64,000 nt of DNA from an archaeon (GTDB lineage Archaea > Nanobdellota > Nanobdellia > Woesearchaeales > JBDRAZ01), in the NCBI GenBank assembly GCA_043823195.1, contig JBDRAZ010000103.1, positions 42,038-106,037 of the forward strand. The letters run 5' to 3'. The notes beneath the pieces were generated by a model. The model had not been told where the DNA came from. It worked only from the letters and a program-made list of their open reading frames with translations, and did no database searches. Shown here piece by piece: positions 25,126 through 57,314 of the stretch (positions are counted from its first letter, which is position 1; each line of letters starts with the position of its first letter). The position numbers and the translations under genes are program-made.

Positions 25126-25186
25126 CATTGCGAAGGGCATTAAATCCAGCATTTCAGGGCGGGGCACTTTCGGTGGATTTTTATGA
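25126..25186. repeat. copy A of a recurrent intergenic GC-hairpin/U-tract element (ttgcgaagggc..gggcggggcactttcggtggatttttatga)
   Basis: Shares cgcagggc / c(c)cgcac / cgg(c)gg(g/a)ttttt(at) blocks with copies at 31952, 34662, 52757 and 57278. Confidence 0.45.
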
Positions 25187-25203
25187 TGCCGGTTTTCAAT
25201 AAG

Positions 25204-25215
25204 GTTTTTATAATC
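25204..25215 (+). promoter_or_regulatory. TATA box (ggtttttataatc) about 25 nt upstream of 25236
   Basis: AT-rich box at the canonical distance from the start codon. Confidence 0.4.
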
Positions 25216-25235
25216 TTTAATCTTTGACATGACTC

Positions 25236-26765
25236 ATGTCCCGCTCATTACTCATCTCCCGCTCATTATTGCTCATTTTGCTTGTCCTTCCGGCGGCATG
25301 CAATCCGGCAAAGCCCGGCAATACAAAGGTTGTGGTCCTGGCGATCGACGGCCTGTCATGGAACGTTATTCAGCCCATGCTCAACAACGGAGAGCTTGAA
25401 ACCTTTGGAAGCCTGATGGATAATGGCAGCTACGGCACACTCAATGTCCCGGAATGGGAAAGCTCACCCGTATTATGGACAACCATGGCAACCGGACGCC
25501 CCCGCCAGTATCATGGTATAGATGGGTGGTATTATTTCGATGCTGAGACTAGGTCATGGATGCCGACCGAATCAACAGCGAGGAAACTGCCGGCAATCTG
25601 GAACATTCTGTCAGGTTTCAACAGGACAGAAGTCATAATTGACTGGCCCGTCACCTCTCCGCCTGAGCAGATTAACGGGATCATGATAACCCGCTTCAAC
25701 TCAATTGAGCATATGGACATTTATCCTCATGACCGGCGGCCCGAGCTGGAGTCGCTTTTATCCTCTGCAGTCTATGATAATTCCCACCCAGACCCGTGGG
25801 TGAATTCCGAGCTCAGCGGCTTTGCCCGCTGGAAACTGCTGACATCAGCCTACCTGCGCGAATCCCCTGACCTTCTTGCCTCATATCTTCAGACCGCGGA
25901 TGGTCTGCAGCACAGGCTGTGGAAATACTATGAGCCTGAGCTGTTTGTCCATCCTGTCTGGGGGATCGATGAGGAAAACATAAAAGCCTACGGACAGGTA
26001 ATACCTGGCCATTACCGGGATATAGATGGCTACATTGGATCGCTCCGGGCCGGGCTGGATGAGCACACAGTCCTGATAATTATCTCTGATCATGGCCTAA
26101 GGCCGGTACCCAGCCCGACAATCAAGAAGTTCGACATTAACCGCATACTGCAAAAGGGGGGCCTGTTATCCCTTAACGCGGCAGGTGATATTGATTACAA
26201 CAGAAGTTCTGCCTACGAATGCGGGACTGCAGAAGAAGACATCAAAGTCTGCCTGAACCCTGATTACCTCAAAGATGCCTCGCGTCTCAGTCACGTGATC
26301 GACTCTGTCCGCGTAGGGGGCATCCGCCCTCTGATGCTTATGGAAGCTGAAGACTCCTATGCAGTCGTGCGGAATCTGCTCTTCAGAACCAGCCTGCCTG
26401 AGCAGATGGGCACAATTGAGGTCTTGTCTCATGACTACAATCTTTCGGGTTTTATAACGCTCTCCTTTTCAGGCGGCCACGACAACAGCGGCGTCATCTT
26501 CATGTCCGGGCCGAACCTCAAGAAGAACGTCCACCTGCGCAATGCAAGCCAGTTTGATGTGCTGCCGACGGTCCTGTATATCCTGGGCTTGCCTGTTGCA
26601 GAGGATATGGAGGGGCAGGTCCTCACCGAGGCATTTGATGCAGCTTACCTGGAAAAGAATCCGGTCAGGTTCATTGCCAGCTATGGGAAGAGAAGCATAA
26701 CCCCGGACCTGGCATCCAGCGACATGGAGTTAATTGACAAGCTGCGGTCTGTTGGCTATGTGTAG
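25236..26765 (+). CDS. secreted alkaline-phosphatase-superfamily enzyme, nucleotide pyrophosphatase/phosphodiesterase (NPP)-like
   Basis: Signal peptide/lipobox (LLLILLVLPAAC). VVVLAIDGLSWNV and SSPVLWTTMATGRPRQYHGI resemble NPP motifs (..TGLYPESHGI). The sulfatase C/S-x-P-x-R motif is absent. Confidence 0.55.
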   Translation: MSRSLLISRSLLLILLVLPAACNPAKPGNTKVVVLAIDGLSWNVIQPMLNNGELETFGSLMDNGSYGTLNVPEWESSPVLWTTMATGRPRQYHGIDGWYYFDAETRSWMPTESTARKLPAIWNILSGFNRTEVIIDWPVTSPPEQINGIMITRFNSIEHMDIYPHDRRPELESLLSSAVYDNSHPDPWVNSELSGFARWKLLTSAYLRESPDLLASYLQTADGLQHRLWKYYEPELFVHPVWGIDEENIKAYGQVIPGHYRDIDGYIGSLRAGLDEHTVLIIISDHGLRPVPSPTIKKFDINRILQKGGLLSLNAAGDIDYNRSSAYECGTAEEDIKVCLNPDYLKDASRLSHVIDSVRVGGIRPLMLMEAEDSYAVVRNLLFRTSLPEQMGTIEVLSHDYNLSGFITLSFSGGHDNSGVIFMSGPNLKKNVHLRNASQFDVLPTVLYILGLPVAEDMEGQVLTEAFDAAYLEKNPVRFIASYGKRSITPDLASSDMELIDKLRSVGYV

Positions 26766-26859
26766 CCTGACTGACCAGCTGGTTCGGTCTGTGGGATTCT
26801 GCCCGCTGGATTCTGCTCCTGTAGGTTCCCCCAGTCAGCAGGCAGCTCAGCCATTCTCC

Positions 26860-27984: not shown

Positions 27985-27997
27985 CTAAGATAGCCCC

Positions 27998-29199
27998 CTA
28001 TTGAAAATTGCGCGGTGTACCCTGCACGAGCGGGGATAGGCGGTGATTATTCCTGATTCTGTTTCTCAGCTTATGGAGCGGGCTCTTAAGCAATCTGGCC
28101 AGGCTGTCTCTTGTCTTCCTTGTCTCGACGACAATACCTGAGGCACAGGTCCTGCAGTAAGACGGCAGTCTGCCGCTGACGACATCTTCCCGCAATTTTG
28201 CAAAATATGGCCCGTACCATATCTCATGAAGCGGCCTGCTATGTATCTTCTCTGCGTCATCCTGGAAATCGCACAGCCTGCACATCACCACATGCCCGCT
28301 GGCCCGGATCTCCATGTTAAGCCATGGCTCGTAGCATGGCGCTGAGAGAAACGGGTCATCACTGGGTTTCTTTTTGGCGTCATCAACCAGTATCATGTCC
28401 ATCTTGGTCTTGTCGATAAGCCTTGACTCCTGCAGGCTCTCCAGGTTTGTCGGCACGCTGAGCTTCCAGGACAGCTCCAGTGCTTCCTGTATCCCTTTCT
28501 GGAATTCCGTCTTCTGCCCCTCAGACAGCTTCAGCGTCTCGCCGGCTTCAGACCACACATTCAATGGCTCAAAGCACACCCCGTCGCAGCCCAGCTCATG
28601 CCCCCACTCTACCATCTCTTTGAGATGATTGTAGTTGCGGTTCGTCAGAACGGCATGAAAGCTGTAGGCCGGAACCCTGCTCCCGTACTCTTCCCTGTAT
28701 TTCTTGAAGTATCTCATGGTATTGACACTCCTCTCAAATGAGCCGGCAACCCCGGTCACATAATCATGGATCTCCGGGTTTGGGCCCTCCAGGCTGAACA
28801 GTATCTTGTCCCATCCGATCTCCACAAGGTTTCTTGCGGATTCCTCTGTAAACAGCGTCCCGTTTGTGGTCAGGCAGCCGAACATGCCGTATTGCTTTAT
28901 GAGGTTCATAATCCTCAGGGCGGTATCCGGCCTTGCCATCGGCTCCCATCCCCCGGCAATCTGCCACTCCAGTACGCCAAGCGCCGCAGCCTCATGGACA
29001 ATCTGCAGCAGCCTTTCCTCAGTCAGTGCTCTGGAATAGTTTGTGATCTTAAGCCGGTCCTCAGACCTCTGCCAGCAGAATTTGCACTTAAGGTTGCATG
29101 AATGCGTGGGCTCAAAATCTATCTTGACAGGTCCGGCCCTTTCGCCCCCGGCCCACCTGGCAAGCCTCTTTATGCGTTCTTTTTGAATTCCCTCATTCA
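27998..29199 (-). CDS. radical SAM enzyme with SPASM/twitch-type C-terminal domain (start taken at MNEGIQKERIKRLARW; the ORF extends to 29302)
   Basis: THSCNLKCKFCWQR, AGGWEP, TTNGTLF, APCYEPW..GHVVMC..CRTC. A TATA-like ttataggatatatga lies just upstream of the chosen ATG. Confidence 0.7.
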
Positions 29200-29361
29200 T
29201 CTGCTCTAGCTCATATATCCTATAATGCCCCCGGCACATGATGGGAAAGTCAAGTTTTTTATATAGTTTATGATGGGCCGGGGCATGCCTGCCTTGCGGC
29301 ACGGGTGCGTCAAACCCTTTTTAGGCCCGGGAAAATAATATCTCGCGCCTTGCCTGGCACC

Positions 29362-29375
29362 TAGCTAACATTTAT
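29362..29375 (+). promoter_or_regulatory. TATA box (acatttatatagat) about 30 nt upstream of 29403
   Basis: AT-rich box at the canonical distance from the start codon. Confidence 0.4.
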
Positions 29376-29402
29376 ATAGATAATTGCGATACAAAGAGTA
29401 AA

Positions 29403-30935: not shown

Positions 30936-31688
30936 ATGGCGTTAAAACCGATAATGAAATGGATTAGGCGGCATTTTATGTATAAAGAATCTGCATGGCC
31001 CGACATGGCCGGCCTGCCGGGAGTCCTGGGGATAAGCATAGTCATCATGGCCTGCATTGCCCTCCTTGGCGCATTTGGGGTTCTCGGGGGCCATGATAGT
31101 CACAGTGCAGTGTATGTAAGCTATCTTAACTCCAACATTAGCGGGGAAACAGCCATGCTGTCTGATTTTGAGGGCGGCGGTGTTGATTTCAGGCTGGAAA
31201 AGTATGGCAAAAACCACGGCACAGATGAGGGCACCATATTGCTGGAAGCGAACCTGGACCGGTCAGCACCCTATGCCGGCAGTCAATCCCTGAGGCTTTC
31301 GTTCAATTTCGGGGAGCCGATCACAGGCACACCCAAGCACATAAAAGCCATTAAGGCAGTCAGGCAGGACTGGAGCCGGTTTGAATACCTGAATTTTGCT
31401 GTGAAGGGTGATGGCCGCGGCGGAAGATTGTATCTGTGGGTTGTTGATGGTGATGGGGACTGGTGGTATTATTCCAGCGACCATCTATTGTACTCAACAG
31501 ACTGGAACCTTGTTACAGTCCCGCTGGACCAGCTGAGCGGGACTGGGCCGAATTTTCCATATCATGGTGATGGGAACAAGGACTTTCATGATGTGGCAGA
31601 ATACAGGATAAGGATAGAGCAGCCGGTAAGGGAGACAAATGGCGCGGATCGGGAAATATACCTTGACAGCATATTCCTGGGGCGGTGA
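30936..31688 (+). CDS. membrane-anchored CBM11/CIA30-like beta-sandwich domain protein
   Basis: N-terminal TM (GISIVIMACIALLGAFGVLGG), then a domain paralogous to 24126..24905 and to the C-terminus of 16582..18729. Starts 10 nt after the GT-C gene's stop. Confidence 0.5.
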   Translation: MALKPIMKWIRRHFMYKESAWPDMAGLPGVLGISIVIMACIALLGAFGVLGGHDSHSAVYVSYLNSNISGETAMLSDFEGGGVDFRLEKYGKNHGTDEGTILLEANLDRSAPYAGSQSLRLSFNFGEPITGTPKHIKAIKAVRQDWSRFEYLNFAVKGDGRGGRLYLWVVDGDGDWWYYSSDHLLYSTDWNLVTVPLDQLSGTGPNFPYHGDGNKDFHDVAEYRIRIEQPVRETNGADREIYLDSIFLGR

Positions 31689-31898
31689 TGCGCAGGCACC
31701 CCTGCAATGCCTATGCCAATGAACCCGCGCGGCCTCATATTTATTGTGCCGTAAAACATTTGACTCTTTCTCAACCCGGGGCCGGCATGGGCATGAGGCT
31801 GCCGGGACATTCACTGAAAAAGCAGAGGGAATCATGGATGACGGCGACGGGTCACAAACGCCTCAGACCTGCGCACAGCCTAATCTGCATAAAGCCAA

Positions 31899-31910: not shown

Positions 31911-31951
31911 TCTTGCTGCAGCAACCGGGTTGGGATCTGTGCGCATATTCA

Positions 31952-32015
31952 TTGAAAATTGCGCAGGGCCTAAAACCCCGCACTTTCGGAAATTGCTCCG
32001 GGCGGCGGGTTTTTG
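31952..32015 (+). repeat. copy B of the recurrent GC-hairpin/U-tract element (ttgaaaattgcgcagggcctaaaaccccgcactttcgg..ccgggcggcgggtttttg)
   Basis: AAAACCCCGC..GCGGCGGGTTTTT inverted repeat. Lies between the TATA box and the start codon. Confidence 0.5.
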
Positions 32016-32039
32016 TCATGTGAGTTCCTCGCCGAAAAA

Positions 32040-33128
32040 ATGAAATCCTGCCTAAAATTAATGCCTTACGTTATGGGGTATCGCCTTTCCAGGCTATCAC
32101 TCCTGCAAACACCGCTGCCTGTAAACATTACTCTCTCGCTGACAAACAGATGCAATTCAAAATGCAAAACCTGCAATATCTGGAAGTGCCCGCAGGTTGA
32201 AGAGCCAACCCTGGATGAGCTGGAAATGATATTGAGGTCACTGGGTACCGTGCCTTTCTGGTTCACACTTACAGGCGGCGAGCCCTTTCTGAGGGGCGAT
32301 CTCGCGGATATCGTGGGGCTCATATGCACAATAAGCAGGCCGGCCATTATCGCCATACCGAGCAATGCATCACTCCCTGGCGCCATTGAGCGAACAGCGC
32401 GGAAAATGCTGGGCATCTGCAAAAAGAATGGTGTTCATTTGGTGATAAACCTCTCCCTGGACAACATAGCGGGCAAGCACGACCGGTTAAGGGGCCATCC
32501 GGGCAGCTTTGACAGGTTTAATGATACGTTCCGGAGGCTGGCCGGCCTGCGGTCCGACTACAAAAACTTTACTCTGGGAATTAATACCGTGATCTCGCGG
32601 TATAACGCAGACGATTTCTTTTCGATCTATAGGTATGTGAATCACATTAGCCCCGACAGCTACATAGTTGAGCCCGCCCAGGAGAGAAAGGAATACATGA
32701 ATCTTGGAGACAACCCGCTCCCTGATATGCAAAAGTATGCAGGCATCATAGGGTTTCTCCGGAAAAATCCGCAGCATCGCAGGAATAATGTGCATGGCAT
32801 GAATAATATATATTCGCTCCTGGTCAATGTGCTGAGGAGAAGATACTACATAGCGACATTGCCTCAGCCAGGGAAAAAGCAGGCCGTCCCCTGTTATGCG
32901 GGAAGGGCATCGATGTACATATCAGGCCGGGCAGACGTCTGTCCCTGTTCGGTATTATGCGAATCCCTGGGAAACCTTAAACGCCGGAAGTATGATTTTA
33001 AGGGGATCTGGCGTGGTGAAAAAGCAGACAGGTTACGAAATGCAATTAAACAGCGGAAATGTGCCTGCACCCAGGCAAATGTCAGCTACACGAATCTAAT
33101 GTGCGGGTGGCCGGTTTGGCAGGTTTAA
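32040..33128 (+). CDS. radical SAM enzyme with SPASM-type C-terminal domain (subfamily distinct from the six paralogs)
   Basis: LTNRCNSKCKTCNIWK, TGGEPF, C-terminal VPCYAG..GRADVCPCS..KCACT. The ORF track starts at TTG 32013; ATG 32040 is preferred because the hairpin/U-tract ends at ~32015. Confidence 0.65.
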   Translation: MKSCLKLMPYVMGYRLSRLSLLQTPLPVNITLSLTNRCNSKCKTCNIWKCPQVEEPTLDELEMILRSLGTVPFWFTLTGGEPFLRGDLADIVGLICTISRPAIIAIPSNASLPGAIERTARKMLGICKKNGVHLVINLSLDNIAGKHDRLRGHPGSFDRFNDTFRRLAGLRSDYKNFTLGINTVISRYNADDFFSIYRYVNHISPDSYIVEPAQERKEYMNLGDNPLPDMQKYAGIIGFLRKNPQHRRNNVHGMNNIYSLLVNVLRRRYYIATLPQPGKKQAVPCYAGRASMYISGRADVCPCSVLCESLGNLKRRKYDFKGIWRGEKADRLRNAIKQRKCACTQANVSYTNLMCGWPVWQV

Positions 33129-33129
33129 A

Positions 33130-34197
33130 TTGAAACAGCTGGATGTCCTTGAAACCCTTCTTGCCAAAAAGGGGCGGTATTCGGTCTTTCTAGATTTCTA
33201 TGGTGTCCGGGCCAGGCTGGAGAGCGATAACCGGGGGATAATTGATTCAATGGAGTTTCACTTCAGATATTTTGTTGCTGATGAAGCAGCGGACCATGAG
33301 ATAACAATCAGGATTTTTCATGAAAAAATAGATTACTCGGTGCTGCCGTACGCTGAAGCCTCATCTCACGCTCCGCATTCATTTTCCTATGACCTCAGAC
33401 AATACAGGATTGTTGATTATTTTGGCAGGGCACTGGCAATTTATAATTATGATACCGACACGGGCGCAATATTCTTTGCCGACTCAGAGTTTGAAGATGA
33501 AACCACATATCTGCTGGTCATGTCAAGAGTCGGGGAATTTCTCGACAGGAAGAAAATTCACCGGATTCATGCACTGGGCGTTTCCTGCAAAGGCAGCGGG
33601 GTGGTTTGCGTTCTGCCTCAGGGCGGTGGGAAGACAACCCTGGCACTTGATCTGCTTAAGGAAAGGGATATTCAGCTGCTGTCAGAAGACACGCCGCTGA
33701 TAAACAAAAAGCTGAAACTGCTGCCCTTTCCGATACGGATGGGCATCAGGATGGAAGATGTAAAGAGGTCAGGAATAGGAACCGGGCATCTTAAGGAATT
33801 TCGCCGTGCATATCATCCTGACAAATACGTGCTGGATTTAACTGCCAGCAGGGAAAAAATATCAAGGCCCTGCAGTGCCAGGGTCCTTATCGTGGGCAAG
33901 CGCGTTCTGGGCGACAAGTCAATAATCGTGCCGGTCAATAAAGCAAGGCTTTTCATGCCCTTATTGAAGACGGTAGTCTTTGGCCTTGGGCTTCCCCAGG
34001 TAGTGGAATACTTCTTGCGCGGGAATCCTGTTTGCGTTATGAAAAACATCAGGATCGCATCGCTGAGATTAATGCTGGCAGTTAAGCTGTTATTGAGGTG
34101 CGATACCTACATCTTCTTCCTGGGTCAAGACACCGGCAAAAATGCCCGGACATTGAAAAAGGCATGCAGGCGGTTAACGCGGAAGGCGTCTTCATGA
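33130..34197 (+). CDS. HPr-kinase-like P-loop protein (HprK-related kinase); TTG start 1 nt after the rSAM stop
   Basis: RIHALGVSCKGSGVVCVLPQGGGKTTLALDLLKERDIQLLSEDTPLI matches the HprK C-domain pattern (H.s.V..G.GVL..G.SG.GKS..AL.L...G..LV.DD). Confidence 0.55.
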   Translation: MKQLDVLETLLAKKGRYSVFLDFYGVRARLESDNRGIIDSMEFHFRYFVADEAADHEITIRIFHEKIDYSVLPYAEASSHAPHSFSYDLRQYRIVDYFGRALAIYNYDTDTGAIFFADSEFEDETTYLLVMSRVGEFLDRKKIHRIHALGVSCKGSGVVCVLPQGGGKTTLALDLLKERDIQLLSEDTPLINKKLKLLPFPIRMGIRMEDVKRSGIGTGHLKEFRRAYHPDKYVLDLTASREKISRPCSARVLIVGKRVLGDKSIIVPVNKARLFMPLLKTVVFGLGLPQVVEYFLRGNPVCVMKNIRIASLRLMLAVKLLLRCDTYIFFLGQDTGKNARTLKKACRRLTRKASS

Positions 34198-34631
34198 TGA
34201 TTAAGATTGATATAAGGGATCAGTATCGGGCAGATATCTATGGGTTTGGAGAGATATACGAGATTGTATCCGTAAACTACCTGTTGCAGAAGCTTAGGGC
34301 GCGATACGCCGGGGGGGACCTTTACCTGTTTGACGGATCTGATGTGCGTTACACCGGCCTGAGGGATTATCTGATTATGGGGGAAATCCCCTTTGAAGAG
34401 GGGACTGCGGACCGTCCCCCCTGGAAACCCAAAACGAGGACGCATCAGAGGCCCGTCACAGCCTATCCTGCTGTCCGGGATCTGGCAGCCCTTGCATTCC
34501 GTTTATTGGTCAGGCTTGAGTTTTTGTGGTCGCAGGCCCATTTGAGGTATGTCTTTACAGCTATGCCCGTTGCATATATGCCGGTTGCAGATGTGCCTGT
34601 TGCAGATATGCCTGTGCGCGGGTTAAGCTGA
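34193..34631 (+). CDS. hypothetical 146-aa protein with C-terminal pentapeptide repeats (MPVAY/MPVAD/VPVAD/MPV); start ATG overlaps the kinase stop (ATGATGA)
   Basis: Start/stop overlap indicates translational coupling. The C-terminus is encoded by four tandem 15-nt repeats. Confidence 0.4.
34563..34622 (+). repeat. 4 x 15-nt tandem direct repeats (atgcccgttgcatat / atgccggttgcagat / gtgcctgttgcagat / atgcctgtgcgcggg)
   Basis: Read directly. In frame at the 3' end of the 146-aa ORF. Confidence 0.7.
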
Positions 34632-34661: not shown

Positions 34662-34740
34662 TCCGGGCGGCTCAGGATGGTTACAAAGCGCCGGGTCTAA
34701 AACCCCGCACTTCAGTGCAGGGATGAGCGGCGGGTTTTTG
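34662..34740. terminator. copy C of the recurrent element, acting as a bidirectional intrinsic terminator between convergent genes
   Basis: CTAAAACCCCGCAC..agtgcaggg..GCGGCGGGTTTTTG: GC stem flanked by an A-run and a T-run, located between the stops at 34631 and 34712. Confidence 0.45.
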
Positions 34741-35803
34741 CGATAAGCTGGTGCTTGATTCTCTCATTCTCCACATGCACTACAGCACAGCACTGTCTGC
34801 AGTAATGCGGCAGGTCCCCCGCAAGGAGCCTTTTTCGTATTGTGCCAAATGCCCTGCCATCCCATATGTCACGGAGTGACCTGCCGTTCAGGTTGTCCCC
34901 TCCGTGGCCTCCTGACATGCTGCACGGCCCGACCGATCCGTCAGGAAGAATTATCATATTGTACCATGGCTCAAAGCAGGGGGCATTGAGGAACGGGTTC
35001 TTCTCGCAGCTGCCTTTTTTTTTGATTAGCTCATCCATGCTCTCTGATGCGTTCTCAACGATCTGCCCATCAAGAAATGACAACACGTTGGTATATGTCC
35101 CATGCTTCTCTGCGATTTCAGCAGCTTTCTTGATGTGCCTGGGCAGCAATGAGCGTTCGTCCGGACTGAGTTCCAGTTCCCTGCCCTCTCTTCCCCAGAC
35201 AGTCATGGGCTGAAACTGGATGTCGCTGCATTTCAGCCTATTGGCCAGTTCCGCCATCTCAGCAATCCTGTTATAGTTCCTGTTGCTGATTACGGTATTG
35301 ATCCGCAGCACCGGCAGCCGGGCCCCTGTCTCCTTCTTGAGCTGATTCAGGGCCTCAATGTTCCTGATTATCTTATTAAACGTCCCGTCCCTGCCCCTCA
35401 GATAATCGTTTACTTCGGGGTCAGGCCCGTCTATGCTCACAGTTACTACGTCCCATTTGCTATCTACCAGAAGGGGTATTGCCGAATCCAGCAGGGTTCC
35501 GTTTGTTATCAGGAGCCCATGCATTCCCTCGCTCTTGATCTGCCCGATTGCCTCCCTGATTCCCTCTGAGAGCAAAGGCTCGCCGCTGCCCGGAATCCTT
35601 ATCTCCTTTACGCCAAGCCGGGACGCCTCGCTAATGACAGATGCAATCCTGCCCCGGTCCAGCTCTGCAGGTTCAGGTTCATGCTCCCTGAGCCAGCAGC
35701 TCCGGCATTTCAGGTTGCACCTGTTAGTGGGGTTAAGCTCTATTGTCACCGGTCCTGCGCTTCCACCTTCTGCCCATCTGCTGAGCCTCTCGATCTTATC
35801 CAT
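34712..35803 (-). CDS. radical SAM enzyme with SPASM/twitch-type C-terminal domain
   Basis: IERLSRWAEGGS..TNRCNLKCRSCWLR, GSGEPL, ITNGTLL, APCFEPW..GSVGPC..CRQCC. Confidence 0.75.
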   Translation of the reverse strand: MDKIERLSRWAEGGSAGPVTIELNPTNRCNLKCRSCWLREHEPEPAELDRGRIASVISEASRLGVKEIRIPGSGEPLLSEGIREAIGQIKSEGMHGLLITNGTLLDSAIPLLVDSKWDVVTVSIDGPDPEVNDYLRGRDGTFNKIIRNIEALNQLKKETGARLPVLRINTVISNRNYNRIAEMAELANRLKCSDIQFQPMTVWGREGRELELSPDERSLLPRHIKKAAEIAEKHGTYTNVLSFLDGQIVENASESMDELIKKKGSCEKNPFLNAPCFEPWYNMIILPDGSVGPCSMSGGHGGDNLNGRSLRDIWDGRAFGTIRKRLLAGDLPHYCRQCCAVVHVENERIKHQLIAKTRRSSLH

Positions 35804-35855
35804 GCAGCCCCCATCAATGAATTAACCATCAATAAATTAAAATAGTTGGTTCAAA

Positions 35856-35870
35856 TGCTTAATATAAATT
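35856..35870 (+). promoter_or_regulatory. TATA box (cttaatataaattag) about 30 nt upstream of ATG 35897
   Basis: AT-rich box at the canonical distance from the start codon. Confidence 0.35.
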
Positions 35871-35896
35871 AGTTGCGCTATTTTGATGATTACAAT

Positions 35897-38116: not shown

Positions 38117-38355
38117 AAGGTCTCATCTTCTGGCATGCCGGCGGGTCCGCCAATCAGGAACGCACGCGCCATGCCCCGACTGGGCAGGATTGGTGTGCGC
38201 CCGTCGGATATCTGTTGCTTATCCCGGGATGTCCTACTTATTTATATAACTATCGGATAAAGTATGATGGAGGTAAGATATTTTAAAGGGTATCTTTTTG
38301 TAGCTGATTATGCAGGAAATTCATTTGCATAATGCCTTGCTAAACGGGTGATTGA

Positions 38356-42805: not shown

Positions 42806-44242
42806 ATGAAACCGCACATCCATGTTGGCAGGGGCGTTATCTACCTGACTTCAGCAGAGCTTTTTTTCTTCCTGACATCGTACATCACCTACTTTTTCAT
42901 CGGCAGGGCCCTGCGGCCCGAGGAGTTCGGGATATTCGGCGTTGTTGTGTTCCTGGCATCCATGATCAACACTGTCATAACAACTGCATTCCAGCAGACC
43001 ATCTCCAGGTTTGTTGCGCAGGACACCCGATATGCCTCTGATGTCAGGACAAAGGGCCTGCTCGTGGTTTTATGCTTCTCTTTTGCTATCACTCTGCTCT
43101 ATCTGGCGTCTGCCGGCTGGATAGCATCACTGCTTAACGATGCGTCCCTTGCAGTTTTTATCAGGATATCATCTGCGCTTATTCTGGTCAGTTCGGTCTT
43201 TCACGGCTATCTTGGCTATCTTAACGGCCTCAAGAGGTTTAGGGAACACGCGATAATCACATACATATACAGCCTCCTGAGGCTCCTCCTGATAGTATCT
43301 GCTGTCTGGCTGGGTTATGGTGTTAAGGGGGCTCTGGTGGCAATTATCCTGTCGCCGCTGGCGTTTGTCCTGGTCTTTATGTTCAGGTACAGTGGAGGAA
43401 GGATTTCGGGCTCGGTAACCCTGCGCAGGATATTCGCTTTTGCCTACCCGCTCATGCTCTTCACCATTGTGCTGAACCTTTTCCTCAACCTTGATCTCTT
43501 TATGGTCAAATCGCTTTCTGATGAGTCCTCCGCAAACCTTCTGGCCGGACTCTACACCGCAGCTTCGACACTGGCAAGGATCCCCTATTACCTGATACTC
43601 GGGCTGTCAATGGTCCTGTTTCCCCTGATCTCTGAATCAACCCATGCGAACAATCATGAGCGGACAAGGAAGCAGATATCGCGCTCAATGAGGTATTGCC
43701 TTCTGTTCCTGGTCCCGATTGTTGCAGTGATCTCTTCGACATCCCGCGGGCTCCTGACCCTTGTCTACTCGGCAGCCTACGCCGGTGCAGCCCCCGCCCT
43801 TGGGATACTGATTATTGGCAACGCCTTCTTTGCGCTCTTTGTCATCCTTACTACGGTAGTCTCTGGCAGCGGGCAGCCGAAAAAATCTTTCCTGATCTCA
43901 GTACCGCTTCTGGTGCTGGACCTCATCCTGAACTACCTCCTCATCACAAGGTGGGGCATCTCGGGCGCTGCTGCCGGGACAACCATCGCATCTGCTGCGG
44001 CTTTTTTCATTGCCGCATATTACGTGCACAGGAAATTCAAAGCCCTCATATCCGCGGCAAGCACTATAAGGATTATTGCATCGGGGGCCGCTGTTTACGC
44101 AGTCAGCCTCGCTGTAGGCATGCAGCATGTCCTGCTCCCCCTTAAATTTCTGCTGCTGGGCTCCCTGTACCTCATTGTGCTTTTCATATCAGGAGAGGTT
44201 AGAAAGGACGATATCCGGTTCTTCAGAAGCCTGGTACCATGA
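42806..44242 (+). CDS. Wzx-like polysaccharide flippase (MOP superfamily)
   Basis: 478 aa, about 12-14 TM helices, composition typical of Wzx/polysaccharide biosynthesis proteins. Confidence 0.55.
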   Translation: MKPHIHVGRGVIYLTSAELFFFLTSYITYFFIGRALRPEEFGIFGVVVFLASMINTVITTAFQQTISRFVAQDTRYASDVRTKGLLVVLCFSFAITLLYLASAGWIASLLNDASLAVFIRISSALILVSSVFHGYLGYLNGLKRFREHAIITYIYSLLRLLLIVSAVWLGYGVKGALVAIILSPLAFVLVFMFRYSGGRISGSVTLRRIFAFAYPLMLFTIVLNLFLNLDLFMVKSLSDESSANLLAGLYTAASTLARIPYYLILGLSMVLFPLISESTHANNHERTRKQISRSMRYCLLFLVPIVAVISSTSRGLLTLVYSAAYAGAAPALGILIIGNAFFALFVILTTVVSGSGQPKKSFLISVPLLVLDLILNYLLITRWGISGAAAGTTIASAAAFFIAAYYVHRKFKALISAASTIRIIASGAAVYAVSLAVGMQHVLLPLKFLLLGSLYLIVLFISGEVRKDDIRFFRSLVP

Positions 44243-44319
44243 TAACGATACCACATATAACGATACTATGTATAGGGATACGATGTATAACGATACTATG
44301 CTGATGATACCATGATAAC
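44235..44319. repeat. 73-bp repeat-rich spacer flanked by 12-bp direct repeats TACCATGATAAC (44235-44246 and 44308-44319) with internal (T)ATAACGATAC(TATG) reiterations
   Basis: Read directly. Collapsing the direct repeats would give an ATGA overlap of the wzx stop with the next gene's start. Confidence 0.6.
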
Positions 44320-45460
44320 CAGAGTCGGACCGGAAATTGGCATTTGGGATATCATTGTCTCACTGGTACCAAGGCCCGGGGACAGCAGGGCGGATTTCGC
44401 GGAGTCTCTCAGGTCATTCTTCGGCGTCAAAAAAGCCGTCCTGTTTCCGAGCGGGAGGTCGGCCCTCTACTACATCCTGAGGGCGCTGCCGCAAAAGAGG
44501 GTATACCTGCCCGGCTTTGACTGCAGGGCGGTTGTTGAGGCCGCCCTCCTTGCGGGAAAAAAGCCGATTTATGTTGATGCCGGCACTGACGGCCTTAACA
44601 TGGACCCGCAGGACCTCAGGAAGAAGATTCAGGCGGATTCGATTGTTGTTGCCACGCATCAGCTGGGCATGCCATGCGACCTGGACGGGATATCCTCCGT
44701 ATGCAATGAAAACAGCTGCATCATGATCGAGGACAACGCCGCATCGTTCGGGGCAGAGTACCGCGGGCGCAGGACCGGGGCCTACGGCGCAGCCTCGATA
44801 GTGAGCTTTGAATATACAAAGGCCCTCACAGCTGCCCGCGGCGGTGCCGCGCTATTTCAGGATGCTGCCCTGTGCGAAAAAGTAGAGGCCCTCTGCGCAA
44901 AAGAAATGGCCGTGCAGCCCCTCTCCACCAGAATAAAGAAGCTCGTGCGTCTGACCGGGTTTCTGCTGGCAACCAAATCATATGTCTACAGGCACCTGGT
45001 TCTTCCCCGGCTGAAAAGGCAGGGCTATTACACAGACAAGGGCGTCCCTGTCCTTTCAAAGGACCCTGAACTCTACTTTGAGGGCATGACCCGGTTCCAG
45101 GCCAGGCTCGGATTGCTCGGGATGGGCCGGATCAGGAGAACCCTCATGCGGAGAAGGTCGATTGCCGATGCCTATGGCCGGTCTCTGGGCGGTATAATTC
45201 ATCTGATTAAGGAGGGCGAACACACGGTACCCTCCTATATGAGATATCCGGTCCTGGTCACGGGCAAGATGGATTTCTACAAAGAAGTCCTGGCGAAGGG
45301 GGTGGACCTGGGCTTCAGTTTCAGCTATGTCTGCGGCGATATGAAAAACCTTAAAAACACCAAAAAGATCGCTGAACAGATACTGAATCTGCCGATGAGA
45401 TCAGCACTCTCTGATGCGGACGTAGCCGCCATAATTCGTGCAGTTAAGGACTCGATATGA
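44312..45460 (+). CDS. DegT-family PLP-dependent sugar aminotransferase-like protein (divergent)
   Basis: IEDNAASFGA.., SFEYTKALTAARGG (Lys present, GEGG degenerate). Confidence 0.5.
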   Translation: MITRVGPEIGIWDIIVSLVPRPGDSRADFAESLRSFFGVKKAVLFPSGRSALYYILRALPQKRVYLPGFDCRAVVEAALLAGKKPIYVDAGTDGLNMDPQDLRKKIQADSIVVATHQLGMPCDLDGISSVCNENSCIMIEDNAASFGAEYRGRRTGAYGAASIVSFEYTKALTAARGGAALFQDAALCEKVEALCAKEMAVQPLSTRIKKLVRLTGFLLATKSYVYRHLVLPRLKRQGYYTDKGVPVLSKDPELYFEGMTRFQARLGLLGMGRIRRTLMRRRSIADAYGRSLGGIIHLIKEGEHTVPSYMRYPVLVTGKMDFYKEVLAKGVDLGFSFSYVCGDMKNLKNTKKIAEQILNLPMRSALSDADVAAIIRAVKDSI

Positions 45461-52703: not shown

Positions 52704-52756
52704 GGGCTTCTGAGAATCATGAATATTATAAAAAGCTTTTGATACCGTGGGATGCT

Positions 52757-52848
52757 ATTGAACTTTTCGCAGGGCACCCCCGCACAGCGAATCCATGGGG
52801 TGAAAAACTCCGCACCTTAGTGCAGGGGCCGTCGGCGGATTTTTATGA
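52757..52848. repeat. copy D of the recurrent GC-hairpin/U-tract element (ttgaacttttcgcagggcacccccgcac..aaaaactccgcaccttagtgcaggggccgtcggcggatttttatga)
   Basis: Shares its blocks with copies A, B, C and E. Confidence 0.5.
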
Positions 52849-54289
52849 ATTTCAGGATGGACTGCGCAATCGGCGATATCGTGCCCAGGGTCCATTTCAG
52901 TTCCCGGTAGGATCTGATGGTCAGAAGCATCTCCACCATCTTTCGCGGCCTAAAAAAGAACCCGAGGTAGGCCTTGCGCTGGAATGCCCTGAGCTCTTCT
53001 TCAGTTAGCTTCGGGCACCTGTGATATAGGTTAGCATCATAAAAACCGCTCTGGTAGACCAGGGCTGACTCGTCCTTAAGCAGGCCTGACTTTTTCATTG
53101 ACTCATACATCTCTGTTCCCGGGAAAGGCGTAAGCATGCAGAAGTTTGCAATTGATGGGTTGCTCTTTATTGCGAACCTGATTGTCCGCTCGATAGATTC
53201 CCTGCTGTCATTTGGAAATCCCAGGATAAAGAACCCGACTGTGATTATCCCGGCCTTTCTGAACCACGCCAGCGCCCTGATGACTTTGTCGGGGTCCAGG
53301 CTTTTCCTGATTGATTTCAGCACATCCCCATCAGCGGATTCAATGCCCACACCCGCCTTGAACACGCCCGCGCGTTTCATCTTCATGACAATGTCCCAGG
53401 TTAGCCTGTCAGCCCTCACTCCATTCTGCAGGTTGATGAGGATGTCCAGCTTCCGCTCAATGATCAGGTCCAGAATCCTGCCGGCCCTTTCGATATCAAG
53501 AGTAAAGTTGTCATCCAGCACATCAAGTTGGCCAATCCCGTATTTCCTGACAAGCATCTCTATCTCATCAACAACATTCTCCGGGCTTCTGGCGCGGTAT
53601 CGCTTACCGAATATGCTGGAGTTGCAGAATGTGCACTGATATGGGCAGCCGCGGCTGCTCATTATGACCCCAACGGGAAACCTCCTCGCACGGGACTCGT
53701 ATTTGCGCAGGGGTGGCATGATGTCATAATCAGGAAAGGGAATCGCATCAAGATCCTCAATAAGTTTCCGCGGCTCGGTCCTGAAAAACTTTCCTTTTTT
53801 CAGGTAGGCAACCCCCGCCACCTTGTCAGGCTGCCTTCCCTCGCAGATTTCGAGGAATGTCTGTTCGCTTTCCCCGACAAACGCAATATCTGCGCCCGAG
53901 AGTGCAAGCATCTCTTCGGGATTCGAGGATGTCAGGGGTCCCCCTATGCATACCATGGCATCATGGGCGGCCTTTATCGCCTTGGCAATCTGTATTCCTG
54001 ATGCAGCCAGGATGACATTCATGTGGATGCCAACAACATCGGGTCTGAATGCGGAGGCCTCTTTCAGCACTGCCTCTAATCCCAGCCCCAGGGCATTTGC
54101 ATCAATTATCCGGACATGATACTGATTTATTGTTGCATATTTTTTCAGATAGGATGAGAGGTAGCCGAGGCCTATCGGCGGATACATTGTTGACTCATTA
54201 ATCCCCTTGCTCAGTGTGGCCGGAGGATTGATGAGTAGTATTTTTTTGGCACTCATTCTGGATTCAGACAATGCGCGATCACCTGACAA
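52817..54289 (-). CDS. B12-binding (class B) radical SAM enzyme
   Basis: KKILLINPP..(B12 domain)..SRGCPYQCTFCNSS..LDDNF..GIESADG. The start may be the internal MSAKK at 54256. Confidence 0.7.
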   Translation of the reverse strand: MSGDRALSESRMSAKKILLINPPATLSKGINESTMYPPIGLGYLSSYLKKYATINQYHVRIIDANALGLGLEAVLKEASAFRPDVVGIHMNVILAASGIQIAKAIKAAHDAMVCIGGPLTSSNPEEMLALSGADIAFVGESEQTFLEICEGRQPDKVAGVAYLKKGKFFRTEPRKLIEDLDAIPFPDYDIMPPLRKYESRARRFPVGVIMSSRGCPYQCTFCNSSIFGKRYRARSPENVVDEIEMLVRKYGIGQLDVLDDNFTLDIERAGRILDLIIERKLDILINLQNGVRADRLTWDIVMKMKRAGVFKAGVGIESADGDVLKSIRKSLDPDKVIRALAWFRKAGIITVGFFILGFPNDSRESIERTIRFAIKSNPSIANFCMLTPFPGTEMYESMKKSGLLKDESALVYQSGFYDANLYHRCPKLTEEELRAFQRKAYLGFFFRPRKMVEMLLTIRSYRELKWTLGTISPIAQSILKFIKIRRRPLH

Positions 54290-54962: not shown

Positions 54963-55929
54963 TTTCTTTCCTCTTGTACCATTCGATAGTCTGCCTCAGG
55001 CCCTCTTTCAGCCGGACCTTAGGGGCAAATCCGAGGATTTCTCCGGCTCTGGATGAATCGCAGTTCCGCCTGGGCTGCCCGGTTGGCTTCGCAGTATCAT
55101 AATGGATGCTGATGTCTTTTTCAGATGCGTCGGCAATCATCCTCACGAGGTCTTTTATTTTTATTTCTTCAACAGTGCCCAGGTTGATGGGGCCCTTTCC
55201 GCAGCCCTTTTCTGCTGCCAGGAGGATTCCCTCTGCAAAATCAGTAACATACAGGAATGATCTGCTCTGTTCGCCGTTTCCCCATACGACCAGAGGGTCC
55301 TCGCCTGAGAAAACCCTCCTTATCAGTGCGGGTATGACGTGCGACTTTTCAGGGTCAAAGTGGTCACGGGGCCCATAGGCGTTGTAGGGGCGCACAACAG
55401 CAATTGCCATGCCGAATTCAGTTTCGTAGAGCTTGGCCTGCAGCTCTGCCATCCTCTTTGCCCAGCCGTACCCTTCATTGGTTGGCTCAGGGACACCCTC
55501 GAATCCCTCTGACTCGGGGGTTGGGATTGTGCAATCCCGCCGGTATACGCAGGCCGAACTGACCATGACCAGCCTGCTTACCCTGTTAACCCTCGCAGCC
55601 TCAAGCACATTTATCTGCATCATCATGTTGGACCTGAACATGGTGCCCGGGTGCTCCTTGTTGTAGCCGATGCCCCCTACCTTAGCGGCAAGGTGCAGGA
55701 TGATATCCATGCCGCGCGCAGCCCTGGCTGCATCCCCAGGGTCTTTCAGGTCGCACTTGACAAACTCTATCTGTTCTCTTACTCTCTCTAGGTTTTTCAG
55801 GTTCCCGTTTTCCAGGTTATCCGCAACAGTCACCCTGGCCCCCTTTTCAACAAGGAGTTCAGCTGCATGGCTGCCTATGAATCCCGCTCCGCCGGTTACC
55901 AGAACCCGTTTATCATTCCAGAAAGTCAT
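54952..55929 (-). CDS. NAD-dependent nucleotide-sugar epimerase/dehydratase (SDR)
   Basis: [18 protein letters not shown].., YGWAK. Confidence 0.7.
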   Translation of the reverse strand: MTFWNDKRVLVTGGAGFIGSHAAELLVEKGARVTVADNLENGNLKNLERVREQIEFVKCDLKDPGDAARAARGMDIILHLAAKVGGIGYNKEHPGTMFRSNMMMQINVLEAARVNRVSRLVMVSSACVYRRDCTIPTPESEGFEGVPEPTNEGYGWAKRMAELQAKLYETEFGMAIAVVRPYNAYGPRDHFDPEKSHVIPALIRRVFSGEDPLVVWGNGEQSRSFLYVTDFAEGILLAAEKGCGKGPINLGTVEEIKIKDLVRMIADASEKDISIHYDTAKPTGQPRRNCDSSRAGEILGFAPKVRLKEGLRQTIEWYKRKENEK

Positions 55930-57149
55930 TTTAGGATCTTCTTGAAAACACCCACAATATAATCGATGTCATCTGCCTCGAGGTATTGGTGGCAGCCTAT
56001 ATAAAATGCATTCTCGCCAATGTAATCTGCATTTGGCAGCCTGTTCCTGTAGGTCTCCCTCAGGTGTGCGTAGGCCGGCTGCTGGGTCGGGATACTTCCG
56101 AAGAGAGGCCTCGTCTCCACACCGTTTTCCTCAAGCTGCATCCTCAGCCTCTTCCTTGGGATGACATTCGGCTTATTTATGAGAATGGGATATGCAAGAT
56201 AGCTTATATCTGTTGAGAATCTGGGCAGCTGCAGAATATCGCTGAACTCCTCAAGGCCCTCATTAAGCAGCCTGACGTTTTCCTGCCTTGCCTTTATTAT
56301 CCACTCGGCCTTCTTGATCTGTGTAAGCCCCAGGGCAGCCTGAAACTCCGTTGTTTTGAAGTTCAGGCCAATTATATCATGATGGAATCTTGGATCAAAA
56401 TCATGGCCCTTATCCGAATCCATATGCGGACATTTGCCGGTGGCCCGCGTGCATACATTGCAGTCGCACATGCGTCCGTTGGCCTTTATCTTCCTGACGA
56501 GCCGGCTAATCTCCTTGTCATTTGTTGTTATTGCACCCATCTCTCCGACCTGGATGTTATGGGCAATGTAAAATGAGAAGTCTGAAAGATGGGAAAGGGA
56601 TCCGGTGCGCTTTCCTTTGTAGAGGGAGCCATGGGCCTGCGCAGAATCCTCAAAGACCACCATGTCATGCTCTTTTGCTATGCGGTTTATGCCATCCATG
56701 TCGCAGGGGTAGCCCATCAGGTGGACCGGCAGCACAACCGAGTGCTCAGAGGCATCGTCACTGTTTTCCAGGGCCTCTTTAATGTTTTCGGGGGTAATGT
56801 TGAAAGTCTCCCTGTTGACATCAACGTAGACCGGGTCAAGATTGGCTGCGACAACCGCATTGCTTGTCGCAATGTAGGTTATGGGTGTGGTGATCACCTT
56901 TGGCCGGTTTCGGAGGTCATGGATATTTTTCAGCGCCATGAGCCCGGCAAGGATGGCCGAGGTGCCCGAGCTAAGCACGACGCAATGGTCGGTTCCGACA
57001 AAACCAGACCACTGTTTCTCGAACTCCCTGACTTTCCTGCCTTCGGATATCCGTCCGCTTTCCACGACTTCCAGGATGGCAGACCGCTCTGCATCGCCTA
57101 GCCTGAAATCGCCAACATGAATCTTTTTCATACGCTGCCCCCTTATCAC
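55926..57149 (-). CDS. DegT-fold PMP-dependent sugar 3-dehydratase-like enzyme (E1/ColD-like; His replaces the Schiff-base Lys) with Cys cluster motif
   Basis: SFYIAHNIQVGEMGAITTND (AHN in place of AK/TK), FEDSAQAHGS, C-x-C-x2-C-x6-C (CDCNVCTRATGKC). Confidence 0.5.
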   Translation of the reverse strand: MIRGQRMKKIHVGDFRLGDAERSAILEVVESGRISEGRKVREFEKQWSGFVGTDHCVVLSSGTSAILAGLMALKNIHDLRNRPKVITTPITYIATSNAVVAANLDPVYVDVNRETFNITPENIKEALENSDDASEHSVVLPVHLMGYPCDMDGINRIAKEHDMVVFEDSAQAHGSLYKGKRTGSLSHLSDFSFYIAHNIQVGEMGAITTNDKEISRLVRKIKANGRMCDCNVCTRATGKCPHMDSDKGHDFDPRFHHDIIGLNFKTTEFQAALGLTQIKKAEWIIKARQENVRLLNEGLEEFSDILQLPRFSTDISYLAYPILINKPNVIPRKRLRMQLEENGVETRPLFGSIPTQQPAYAHLRETYRNRLPNADYIGENAFYIGCHQYLEADDIDYIVGVFKKILK

Positions 57150-57277
57150 TTCTGCAAGATAGCTACGTGTTTAAATAAGTTTTGCTAGTTGAATCCAAAC
57201 TTATGCTGTTGATATCCTGTTCACAGCAGGCCGGCTCCCCAGGCCCGCCTCCCCGGCACCCATCTGGCCTCAGTTTT

Positions 57278-57314
57278 ATGGAGGGCATGCTCCGCATATC
57301 AGCGGATTTTTAGA
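57278..57314. repeat. copy E of the recurrent element (ggagggcatgctccgcatatcagcggatttttaga)
   Basis: Matches the cgcagggc..ccgcac..cggcggattttta consensus. Confidence 0.4.

Follow-up and report, generated by a model that had tools for sequence, protein, structure and literature searches.

Short GC-rich palindromic repeats at gene boundaries of an archaeal glycan island

Four short stretches of DNA in an archaeal island of nucleotide-sugar, glycosyltransferase and radical-SAM (rSAM) genes, copies A to D, form a genuine repeat family: they are more alike than chance allows. The element is about 55–90 nt long and lies at the borders of transcription units. All copies are read on the plus strand, in one common orientation, and occur between 25 and 57 kb of the window, the whole 64-kb stretch of DNA that was analysed. 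The best explanation is a lineage-specific dispersed repeat of REP/MITE type, which may well act as a bidirectional terminator or insulator at these borders.

Membership and anatomy of the repeat family

The sequence-only reading of this DNA had described five related stretches, A to E. All five are present with the blocks that it quoted, and family membership holds for A–D but not for E (Table 1). Leave-one-out nhmmer profiles recovered A (E = 1.2e-5), B (1e-6), C (7e-10) and D (1.3e-8), whereas E was left without support (E = 2.9); what E has in common with D is only the 14-nt 3' block TCRGCGGATTTTTA, to which a 5-bp hairpin in E can be added. Pairwise local alignments of A–D gave z-scores of 5.5–12.6. 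When all gene-boundary segments of the window were compared, B–C (score 44) and C–D (score 39) were the top two of 702 comparisons, and A–D, A–B, F–B and B–D ranked near the 99th percentile. When 3 or fewer mismatches are allowed, the 3' block CGGCGGATTTTTATGA occurs four times, each time on the plus strand and in one of the copies A–D, where 0.36 occurrences would be expected.

The nhmmer profile found no further full copy in the 64-kb window. Two additional stretches, absent from the earlier reading, are a decayed copy, F, and a possible fragment, G. The left module of F is identical to that of B at 16 of 19 bases, 14 of them consecutive (about 0.01 expected by chance), while its full-length nhmmer match is weak (E about 1–2). 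G matches D at about 17 of the 21 bases of 52767–87, as judged by eye. In total, four copies are certain, one is decayed, one is a fragment and one a look-alike.

Table 1. Location, composition and setting of the copies
Feature	Position	Strand	Blocks and T-runs	Setting
Copy A	25127..25186	+	ATTGCGAAGGGC, degraded C-block, GCACTTTCGG, CGGTGGATTTTTATGA; T5 25178–82	Divergent intergenic region; 23 nt upstream of TATA box 25205–13 of gene 25236
Copy F (decayed)	28000..28052	+	ATTGAAAATTGCGCGGTGTACCCTGCAC...GGCGGTGATTATT; T5 run lost	
Fragment G (possible)	31689..31710	+	TGCGCAGGCACCCCTGCAATG; by-eye likeness to the first hairpin of D	
Copy B	31951..32020	+	Left module ATTGAAAATTGCGCAGGGC, C-block AAAACCCCGCAC, second left-like block TTCGGAAATTGCTCCGGGC, CGGCGGGTTTTTG; T5 32010–14	Upstream TATA box 31901–08; downstream rSAM/SPASM gene, ATG at 32040
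Copy C	34685..34744	+	GCGCCGGGTC, AAAACCCCGCAC, loop TTCA, GTGCAGGG, GCGGCGGGTTTTTG; T5 34735–39 (+), T4 34699–702 (−)	Between convergent genes 34098..34631(+) and 34712..35803(−)
Copy D (composite)	52757..52848	+	Left module ATTGAACTTTTCGCAGGGC, short hairpin 52768–85, AAAAACTCCGCAC, loop CTTA, GTGCAGGGG, CGGCGGATTTTTATGA; T5 52840–44 (+), T5 52803–07 (−)	
Copy E (doubtful member)	57277..57314	+	ATGGAGGGCATGC, hairpin TCCGC-ATATCA-GCGGA, TTTTT 57307–11	Divergent intergenic region, between TATA boxes 57170–77 and 57353–62

The unit is a GC-rich imperfect palindrome. A C-rich block (AAAACCCCGCAC; for the unit as a whole, (AAAA)CYCCGCAC) is flanked by the G-blocks GCGCAGGG, GTGCAGGG and GCGGCGGG and can pair with two or three such G-rich blocks, its pairings with the upstream and with the downstream G-block being mutually exclusive. 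The unit is bordered by an A-run at one side and by a T5 run at the opposite side, and copy D joins about 1.5 units in a composite.

We considered that independent, unrelated terminators had converged on the shape of a GC stem plus T-run. This reading was already disfavoured and is very improbable. It is true that the sequence AAAACCCCGCAC-loop-GTGCGGGGTTTTT is very widespread among bacterial terminators, and that loose patterns matched unrelated contigs, more than 120 from metagenomes and 90 from genomes. However, the likeness between the copies includes parts outside the stem (left module ATTGAAAATTGCGC, CTAAAA spacer, blocks GCACTTTCGG and TTTTTATGA), and this similarity is statistically strong in a stretch of only 64 kb. 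Nor does the element lie 3' of most genes, as the earlier reading would have expected of ordinary terminators: in a profile search of the 64-kb window, other gene ends have different T-runs and lack the element.

Position relative to genes and promoters

The host is an archaeon of DPANN type with TATA-box promoters, and its closest relatives are Woesearchaeota/Nanoarchaeota. A 100% identical protein is recorded as coming from an archaeal MAG, the NFACT protein has its best non-self matches in these groups, at 47% identity, and TTTATATA boxes stand 21–25 nt before start codons. The settings first described from the sequence proved correct: convergent genes flank C, a TATA box (TTTATATA) and a start codon flank B, and the distance from the end of the copy to the following gene start is 50 nt for A (start at 25236), 25 nt for B (32040) and 72 nt for E (57386).

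Three minus-strand radical-SAM genes end inside copies C, D and F, and they do so in the same frame of the element. The earlier reading remarked neither on the common orientation nor on the fact that copies C and D take in the final ~10 codons of their genes; both place the stop codon in a hairpin loop (34712–14 within hairpin 34703–34722 for C, 52817–19 for D), the minus-strand T-run following directly. C encodes the last codons, KTRRSSLH and stop, of gene 34712..35803(−), and D the protein tail KIRRRPLH of the B12-rSAM gene 52817..54289(−), also with its stop. F encodes the last ~17 codons (..RLSPLVQGTPRNFQ and stop) of the rSAM/SPASM gene 27998..29302(−). The tails RRSSLH (C), RRRPLH (D) and HRLSPL.. 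(F) are thus written in one element frame. On the plus strand, the first T5 after the gene ending at 34631 is that of C and the first after the gene ending at 31688 is that of B; fragment G directly follows the stop codon of this latter gene (30936..31688). Neither strand offers an annotated gene for A or E to terminate. About 23 nt beyond the left end of D is the TATA box (52726–34) that belongs to the next minus-strand gene. The flanking paralogues share only 26–36% amino-acid identity, as against 25-nt stretches at 92% identity in the elements.

Small ORFs of 22–37 codons end near A or cover B, D and E; one of 36 codons (25008–25117) stops 9 nt before A. No ATG- or GTG-initiated ORF is present in C, where the only open frame has 27 codons and is TTG-initiated. 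Small peptide genes, for example for radical-SAM substrate peptides, were rejected as an explanation: the ORFs read the common blocks in different frames and show no protein similarity.

The proximity of promoters raises the question of operators for a sequence-specific regulator of the island, the site being the imperfect palindrome GCGCAGGGYC-TAA-AACCCCGCAC. Its half-site spacing of 10-3-10 is identical in A, B, C and the second half of D, TATA boxes lie 20–110 nt from A, B, D and E, and the sequence is conserved without covariation. We nevertheless find operators improbable. The half-sites agree at only 6 of 10 positions, and the conserved span (55–90 nt, several blocks and T5) exceeds that of a typical operator by far. 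C has convergent genes on its two sides and no promoter, F lies inside a gene, and the position relative to the TATA box varies (upstream in A, D and E, downstream in B). Moreover, the sole regulator in the window is of AsnC type (6606–7013) and located 18 kb away.

Termination, spread and RNA-level pairing

In archaea, termination is signalled by U4-7 tracts, with the factor aCPSF1, and a hairpin is not strictly required (PMC8716108). Such tracts, of at least 4–5 T on the non-template strand just downstream of the unit, are found here, with no annotated upstream gene in the case of A and E. Read on the plus strand, the unit ends in ...CGGCGGRUUUUU, with T5 in A–E. Read on the minus strand, it forms a hairpin of 8–10 bp followed by UUUU(U), with T4–5 after the hairpin in B, C and D. 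It is because of these two endings that we propose a stop in both directions. The minus strand of B (31983–31961) gives 10 pairs and then AAUUUUC, the top terminator-like site of the scan; C gives 8 pairs and then UUUU, and in D a stem of 8 positions, with 7 pairs and a single mismatch, precedes UUUUU. On the plus strand, the gap from stem to T5 is 9–12 nt in C and D, and E has 5 pairs followed by UUUUU, a weak fit to the intrinsic-terminator shape. The hairpins of A are degraded, short of the GC stem of at least 7–8 bp plus U-run of an intrinsic terminator, and A has no minus-strand T-run. A lone T5 says little, because the background is high: the window holds 193 runs of at least 5 T or A.

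Judged from sequence alone, the element would stop transcription both ways at unit borders. Transcription of the minus-strand radical-SAM genes at 34712 and 52817, whose stop codons lie in the hairpin loop, would end there, as would that of the plus-strand units finishing at 34631 and perhaps 31688. The element would also keep stray transcription that starts at near-symmetric TATA boxes close by from reaching the neighbouring unit. In an archaeon the active signal would most likely be the U-run, the hairpin being a helper or a relic of the origin of the repeat. The initial suggestion of an insulating or bidirectional terminator, or of a small MITE-like repeat, is thus tenable, considering T5 on the plus strand, usually T4–5 on the minus strand, sites at unit borders and a likeness exceeding that of the flanking genes.

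The unit probably spread by insertion or recombination, in the manner of REP or MITE sequences, and was not inherited with duplicated genes, because the copies are far more alike than the surrounding genes and because three unrelated or distantly related genes end in frame inside copies. This mode of spread is unproven, since no good terminal inverted repeat, target-site duplication or transposase was found. The same likeness, and the same element-encoded tails in one frame, would also fit a miniature repeat that is selfish or neutral and has no function of its own, being either MITE/REP-like or a scar left by recombination between cassettes of the island; termination would then be incidental, and the A- and T-runs and the palindrome would be traces of the insertion or recombination mechanism. 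F and A are decaying, D is composite, substitutions break pairs rather than keeping them, and the family is restricted to a variable glycan island, all of which speak for such a repeat. Against it, complementarity between the ends ATTGAAAATTGCGC and GCGGATTTTTATGA is loose (about 9/15), no flanking direct repeats were seen by eye at the copies, the 64 kb hold no transposase or RAYT gene (no transposase-like Pfam match among 50 window proteins scanned), the orientation is single throughout, and no copy lies mid-gene. A widespread mobile family is not indicated either: exact-pattern scans of 185,579 species genomes and of JGI metagenomes matched only generic bacterial terminators. A purely selfish or neutral repeat is on balance unlikely.

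The copies had also been read as attenuators or structured RNA leaders coordinating the operons of the island, and this part found no support. Rfam gave no match at the gathering score or at E <= 10, folding energies on either strand were no better than those of shuffles (z = +1.0 to −1.4), and neither was the paired fraction of 72–75% (5 sequences). Neither candidate helix contains a compensatory change, and substitutions break pairs, although only 5 sequences could be compared. Most copies are outside leaders: a possible 5' leader contains B alone, the 3' ends of genes run into C, D and F, and A and E are upstream of promoters.

We also weighed a broader RNA-level element, either a cis-acting leader or attenuator or short non-coding RNAs running from nearby TATA boxes to the T5, with the exclusive C-block/G-block pairings as a switch. 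A TATA box indeed lies about 110, 115 and 137 nt upstream of the plus-strand T5 in B, D and E, and within the possible leader of B an ORF of 34–37 codons (31930/31939–32043) overlaps the ATG of the downstream rSAM gene. The non-Watson-Crick helix positions are mostly G-U on the minus strand (about 9 versus 1, not independent), which hints at pairing at the RNA level. However, A and C have no upstream TATA box, the frames of the small ORFs disagree over the common blocks, and attenuation by hairpins is not established for archaea (PMC8716108). Together with the Rfam, folding and covariation results, this makes an RNA-level element rather improbable.

An equally speculative idea, with little chance of being right, is that this DPANN lineage has, in the repeat, a mobile gene-end cassette of its own. 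If true, its minus strand would supply an RRxxLH C-terminal tail, a hairpin-loop stop codon and a terminator to the gene in front, its plus strand would supply a T5 stop, and control through the leader of B could, with the overlapping 34–37-codon ORF, tie expression of the radical-SAM operon to translation-coupled read-through of T5. It would then be a sequence-specific, possibly protein-recognised, archaeal element of termination or insulation.

Comparison with known systems

The two-way terminator repeat that we favour shares with archaeal oligo-U terminators (aCPSF1/FttA) the archaeal host and the T5 (plus strand, A–E) and T4–5 (minus strand, B, C and D) at or near gene ends. Known oligo-U terminators, however, need no hairpin and are not described as 55–90-nt repeats that share conserved G- and C-blocks; the present copies are conserved in the sequence that precedes the T-run, and the element is known from sequence only. 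With bidirectional intrinsic (Rho-independent) terminators of bacteria, copy C shares an A-run, a GC-rich stem-loop and a T-run between convergent genes, and the core AAAACCCCGCAC...GGGGTTTTT is the same sequence as in countless bacterial intrinsic terminators. The differences are that the RNA polymerase of the host is archaeal, not bacterial, that the perfect hairpin stands 9–12 nt from the plus-strand T5, that the element has extra conserved blocks, and that A and E are without a gene that they could terminate.

REP/BIME, Correia, ERIC and BOX/RUP repeats and prokaryotic MITEs often double as terminators or as stabilisers of mRNA 3' ends (PMC3184786, PMC10969869). Like REP/MITE-type repeats, the present copies are short GC-rich imperfect palindromes of modular and variable build that lie between genes and across gene 3' ends and resemble each other more than their surroundings. 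They differ in that the window holds no RAYT or transposase and no clear terminal inverted repeats or target duplications, and in that six or seven copies are seen, in one orientation, within 32 kb of the 64-kb window; the other genomes searched yielded no related copy. Riboswitches and attenuators likewise have mutually exclusive pairings with a stem adjacent to the T-run, and B lies between promoter and start codon; but the host is archaeal, most copies are outside leaders, and an Rfam match, covariation and significant folding are all lacking. Integron attC sites go with an IntI integrase and with single-ORF cassettes of one orientation, and they have R''/R' core sites (RYYYAAC...GTTRRRY). 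They were rejected: there is no integrase, the copies are spaced 2.7–18 kb apart among genes of mixed orientation, and their 3' end, GTTTTTG, is unlike GTTRRRY.

Membership of the repeat family

In order to determine whether the GC-hairpin/T-tract elements A to E are related, we compared them by several approaches. The sequence-only reading had grouped these five stretches into one family, and direct reading and alignment of the stretches confirmed the blocks that it quoted. Pairwise local alignment gave z-scores of 12.6 (B-C), 10.4 (C-D), 6.7 (A-B), 6.4 (A-D) and 5.5 (B-D), and a repeat finder, run separately, placed A, B and C in one family (D19), with 92% identity between B and C over 25 nt. 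Leave-one-out nhmmer searches of the whole window recovered A, B, C and D with E-values of 1.2e-5, 1e-6, 7e-10 and 1.3e-8, respectively. When all 27 gene-boundary segments of the window were compared all against all in both orientations (702 comparisons), B-C and C-D gave the top two scores, and A-D, A-B, F-B (F being a decayed copy) and B-D stood at about the 99th percentile. The 16-nt 3' block, with up to 3 mismatches, occurs 4 times against 0.36 expected, each time in A-D and on the plus strand. Alignments, profiles, boundary comparisons and 3'-block counts thus establish A-D as a real family. The grouping is supported for these four but not for E, whose z-score is 4.3 with D and below 1 with B and C, and which the leave-one-out profile did not recover over the whole window (E = 2.9). 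E is a short hairpin followed by T5 (a run of five T) only, with a 14-nt resemblance to D. The motif CGGCGGRTTTT, with at most one mismatch, has 7 matches, 5 of which are A to E.

Matches to the left end of B, ATTGAAAATTGCGCAGGGC, are present in D (16/19 bases) and at 28000-28018 (16/19, with 14 consecutive bases identical). The latter site belongs to F, a decayed copy that has lost T5. No further copy was found in the 64 kb by profile search. All copies lie on the plus strand, between 25 and 57 kb. That they serve as an operator for a regulator of the island in this region seems improbable.

Copies, small open reading frames and sequence blocks of the element
Feature	Position	Strand	Description
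Copy A	25127-25186	+	
Copy B	31951-32020	+	
Copy C	34685-34744	+	
Copy D	52757-52848	+	
E	57277-57314	+	Doubtful copy
Copy F	28000-28052	+	Left module as in B, then ACCCTGCAC and GGCGGTGATTATT
Possible fragment G	31689-31710	+	TGCGCAGGCACCCCTGCAATG, like the first hairpin of D, judged by eye
Small ORF at A	25008-25117	+	
Small ORF at B	31930-32043	+	
Small ORF at D	52752-52820	+	
Small ORF at E	57204-57313	+	
G-rich block			(T)TGCGMAGGGC
C-rich block			(AAAA)CYCCGCAC
Second G-block			AGTGCAGGG, in C and D
Further block			CGGYGGRTTTTT, quoted by the sequence-only reading
Element ends			ATTGAAAATTGCGC / GCGGATTTTTATGA, for comparison with transposase ends

A pattern scan of 185,579 species genomes, the source genome not being among them, returned 90 unrelated single matches, mostly bacterial, and the other blocks were absent from all 90. 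In metagenome contigs the strict pattern had no match, and the loose pattern had more than 120, all of them generic terminators with a perfect AAAACCCCGCAC-loop-GYGCGGGGTTTTT hairpin and without the other blocks. Viral contigs gave 9 matches, none with the 3' block. The outcome of the loose scan shows that the element core alone is a very common terminator sequence; with the family statistics alongside, we regard it as most improbable that the copies are unrelated terminators that converged.

Anatomy and position of the copies

The unit forms an imperfect palindrome, rich in GC, whose C-rich stretch can pair with two or three G-rich stretches, and which ends on the plus strand in CGGCGGR followed by T5. 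On the plus strand, the whole unit of B folds as a long imperfect hairpin from A-run to T-run (-24 kcal/mol); on the minus strand, B has a 10-pair hairpin followed by AAUUUUC, the best terminator-like site in the scanned 24-44 kb segment. The minus strands of C and D read CCCUGCAC-UGAA-GUGCGGGG followed by UUUU, and CCCUGCAC-UAAG-GUGCGGAG followed by UUUUU. The hairpin loop holds the stop codon of a minus-strand radical-SAM gene (34712-14 in C, 52817-19 in D), and the element encodes the last 8-10 codons of both genes. The resulting tails, KTRRSSLH* and KIRRRPLH*, are read in the same frame although one protein is of the SPASM type and the other of the B12 type. The loop has been deleted from F, where the reading frame of the gene at 27998 runs across the entire element (..HRLSPLVQGTPRNFQ*) and stops at the left edge of the element. 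The repeat hence supplies the C-terminal residues and the stop codon of three radical-SAM genes.

The placements described from sequence alone were borne out in the window. C lies between convergent genes. B lies between a TTTATATA box (31901-08) and a start codon, the ATG of a radical-SAM gene being 25 nt further on, and follows a plus-strand gene by 264 nt. A and E are in divergent intergenic regions upstream of the genes at 25236 and 57386, 23 and 42 nt before their TATA boxes. D separates two minus-strand genes and stands just past the TATA box that belongs to the downstream gene. Other unit borders (26766-26859, 29303-29402, 35804-35872 and 38117-38355) carry no copy, and other gene ends use unrelated T-runs, for instance at 6553, 10585 and 10835-51. 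Within the window, the element is thus not the generic terminator of the genome.

Spread by gene duplication was considered and rejected. Paralogues of the genes that end in an element are only 26-36% identical and mostly lack the element; those at 26860, 13590, 35873 and 45457 have none. Simple carriage along with duplicated genes therefore does not account for the copies. Divergence is far greater among the flanking genes than among the copies, which either entered by insertion or exchange at a later stage or are constrained in sequence.

Host and glycan/radical-SAM island

One protein of the window is 100% identical to NCBI MFH1850447.1, labelled 'MAG: ... [archaeon]' and encoded on a 160-kb contig, and the NFACT protein has its best non-self matches in Woesearchaeota/Nanoarchaeota (47% identity). 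Boxes of the TTTATATA type stand 21-25 nt before start codons, which is an archaeal, mostly leaderless promoter geometry. An island at 12-60 kb encodes nucleotide-sugar enzymes, glycosyltransferases, a flippase and about 17 radical-SAM proteins of SPASM, B12-binding and zinc-ribbon types. The radical-SAM genes are unusually dense (12000-54300), include an HMPTM zinc-ribbon type and one TPR fusion, and are intermixed with genes of the glycosyltransferase, nucleotide-sugar, carbamoyltransferase and flippase kinds; among them are several paralogues of recent origin, forming DNA-level repeat families (D1-D11, repeat finder). Three CBM_11-like carbohydrate-binding proteins are encoded at 24126-24905 (-), 30936-31688 (+) and 16582-18729 (-); each of the two small paralogues has a copy next to it, in one case A, about 220 nt upstream, and in the other B, 264 nt downstream.

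Two radical-SAM genes appear split. ORFs 20014..20736 (B12-binding domain and radical-SAM start) and 20711..21448 (rest of the radical-SAM domain) look like one frameshifted gene, and the split at 20711-20736 falls exactly on a T11 homopolymer (20724-20734); an error of sequencing or assembly, a pseudogene and slipped-strand phase variation are all possible explanations. In a PMT_2-family gene, the sense strand contains a T12 run (30098-30109). The second case, at 11722-13606 (-), comprises ORF 12119..13606, which has the radical-SAM domain, and the overlapping ORF 11722..12261 in another frame, whose C-terminus resembles that of SPASM-type paralogues (CLKPWYNM..CNKC). A tandem array of four 15-nt units ATAACGATACNATGT (44242-44300, family D15) fills the gap between a flippase-like gene (42806..44242) and a DegT-family gene (44312..45460).

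A 5S rRNA gene at 11301-11417 (-, 64 bits) is an orphan, as neither 23S nor 16S rRNA adjoins it. Just upstream, a 49-codon ORF with two CxxC pairs (11456..11605, -) is possibly a zinc-ribbon ribosomal protein. A 122-residue Cys-rich protein (10926-11294, +), probably secreted, matches the Kazal-type serine protease inhibitor domain (E = 1e-9). Such domains are known mainly from eukaryotes, so its presence in an archaeal MAG is unexpected.

Possible roles of the element

Attenuators and structured leaders were among the roles first proposed, and the structural data speak against them. At the copies, Rfam gave no match at the gathering score or at E <= 10, and the folding energies of all copies on both strands were within the shuffle range (z = +1.0 to -1.4). 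When the minus strands of the 5 sequences A, B, C, D and F were aligned, neither candidate helix showed any compensatory change; 72-75% of helix cells pair, no better than in column shuffles, and differences mostly break pairs. Non-Watson-Crick helix positions are mostly G-U on the minus strand (4/4 in B). This excess is the one remaining hint of RNA-level pairing, from few positions that are partly shared by descent, and we give little credence to an RNA leader or small RNA.

Small ORFs (22-37 codons) stop just upstream of A or span B, D and E. The latter three start about 17-30 nt after a TATA box (leaderless geometry), and the one at B closes with ATGA and so overlaps the beginning of the radical-SAM/SPASM gene. 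Coding for small peptides, possibly radical-SAM substrates, was rejected: the shared blocks are in different frames in different copies and the peptides show no mutual similarity, so the ORFs are probably due to chance. The peptide at B contains Cys and adjoins a SPASM maturase-type enzyme, and might merit a look. An integron attC site was dismissed as there is no integrase and both spacing and core sites are wrong. The T-run block has a start codon at the right distance for a TATA box (30 nt) in B only, and in C and D it would drive antisense transcripts; this was rejected as a general role. T5 occurs 88 times in sense against 171 times in antisense in coding regions. Selection against sense T-runs would fit this bias, but Lys codons explain it equally well, and it was therefore not used as evidence.

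Archaeal termination is signalled by U4-7 tracts together with aCPSF1, a hairpin being not strictly needed, and more U-tracts give stronger termination (PMC8716108). T5 on the plus strand at transcription-unit borders would stop plus-strand transcripts, and the T4-5 usually present after the hairpin on the minus strand would stop minus-strand ones. Because T-runs stand on both strands at unit borders, we take the elements as putative two-way terminators or insulators, spread within the island as a small REP/MITE-like repeat, a reading to which we give about an even chance. A, E and the plus side of D may stop wrong-way transcripts from nearby near-symmetric TATA boxes. A selfish or recombination repeat without function is unlikely, though less so than the other alternatives; no integrase or transposase domain was found among the scanned window proteins. 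It would be a long shot that the repeat is a mobile 'gene-end cassette', or that it acts as a sequence-specific termination element, copy B being a translation-coupled leader.

If two-way termination is true, these would be archaeal terminators related by descent with a conserved hairpin-forming part, bearing on the open question whether RNA structure ever assists archaeal termination. They would also be a case of gene ends being shaped by a REP/MITE-like repeat in a reduced DPANN genome, as the final residues and the stop codon of three radical-SAM proteins come from it. In practice, the copies mark the limits of transcription units in a variable surface-glycan island. The feature is at present modest and lineage-restricted, with no sign of a new regulatory principle. 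U-tract terminators are the norm in archaea. In bacteria, small palindromic repeats that lie between genes and also act as terminators are a familiar feature (PMC3184786, PMC10969869). What is new here is only this particular family, its host, a deep-branching DPANN-type archaeon, and the three repeat-derived ends of radical-SAM genes.
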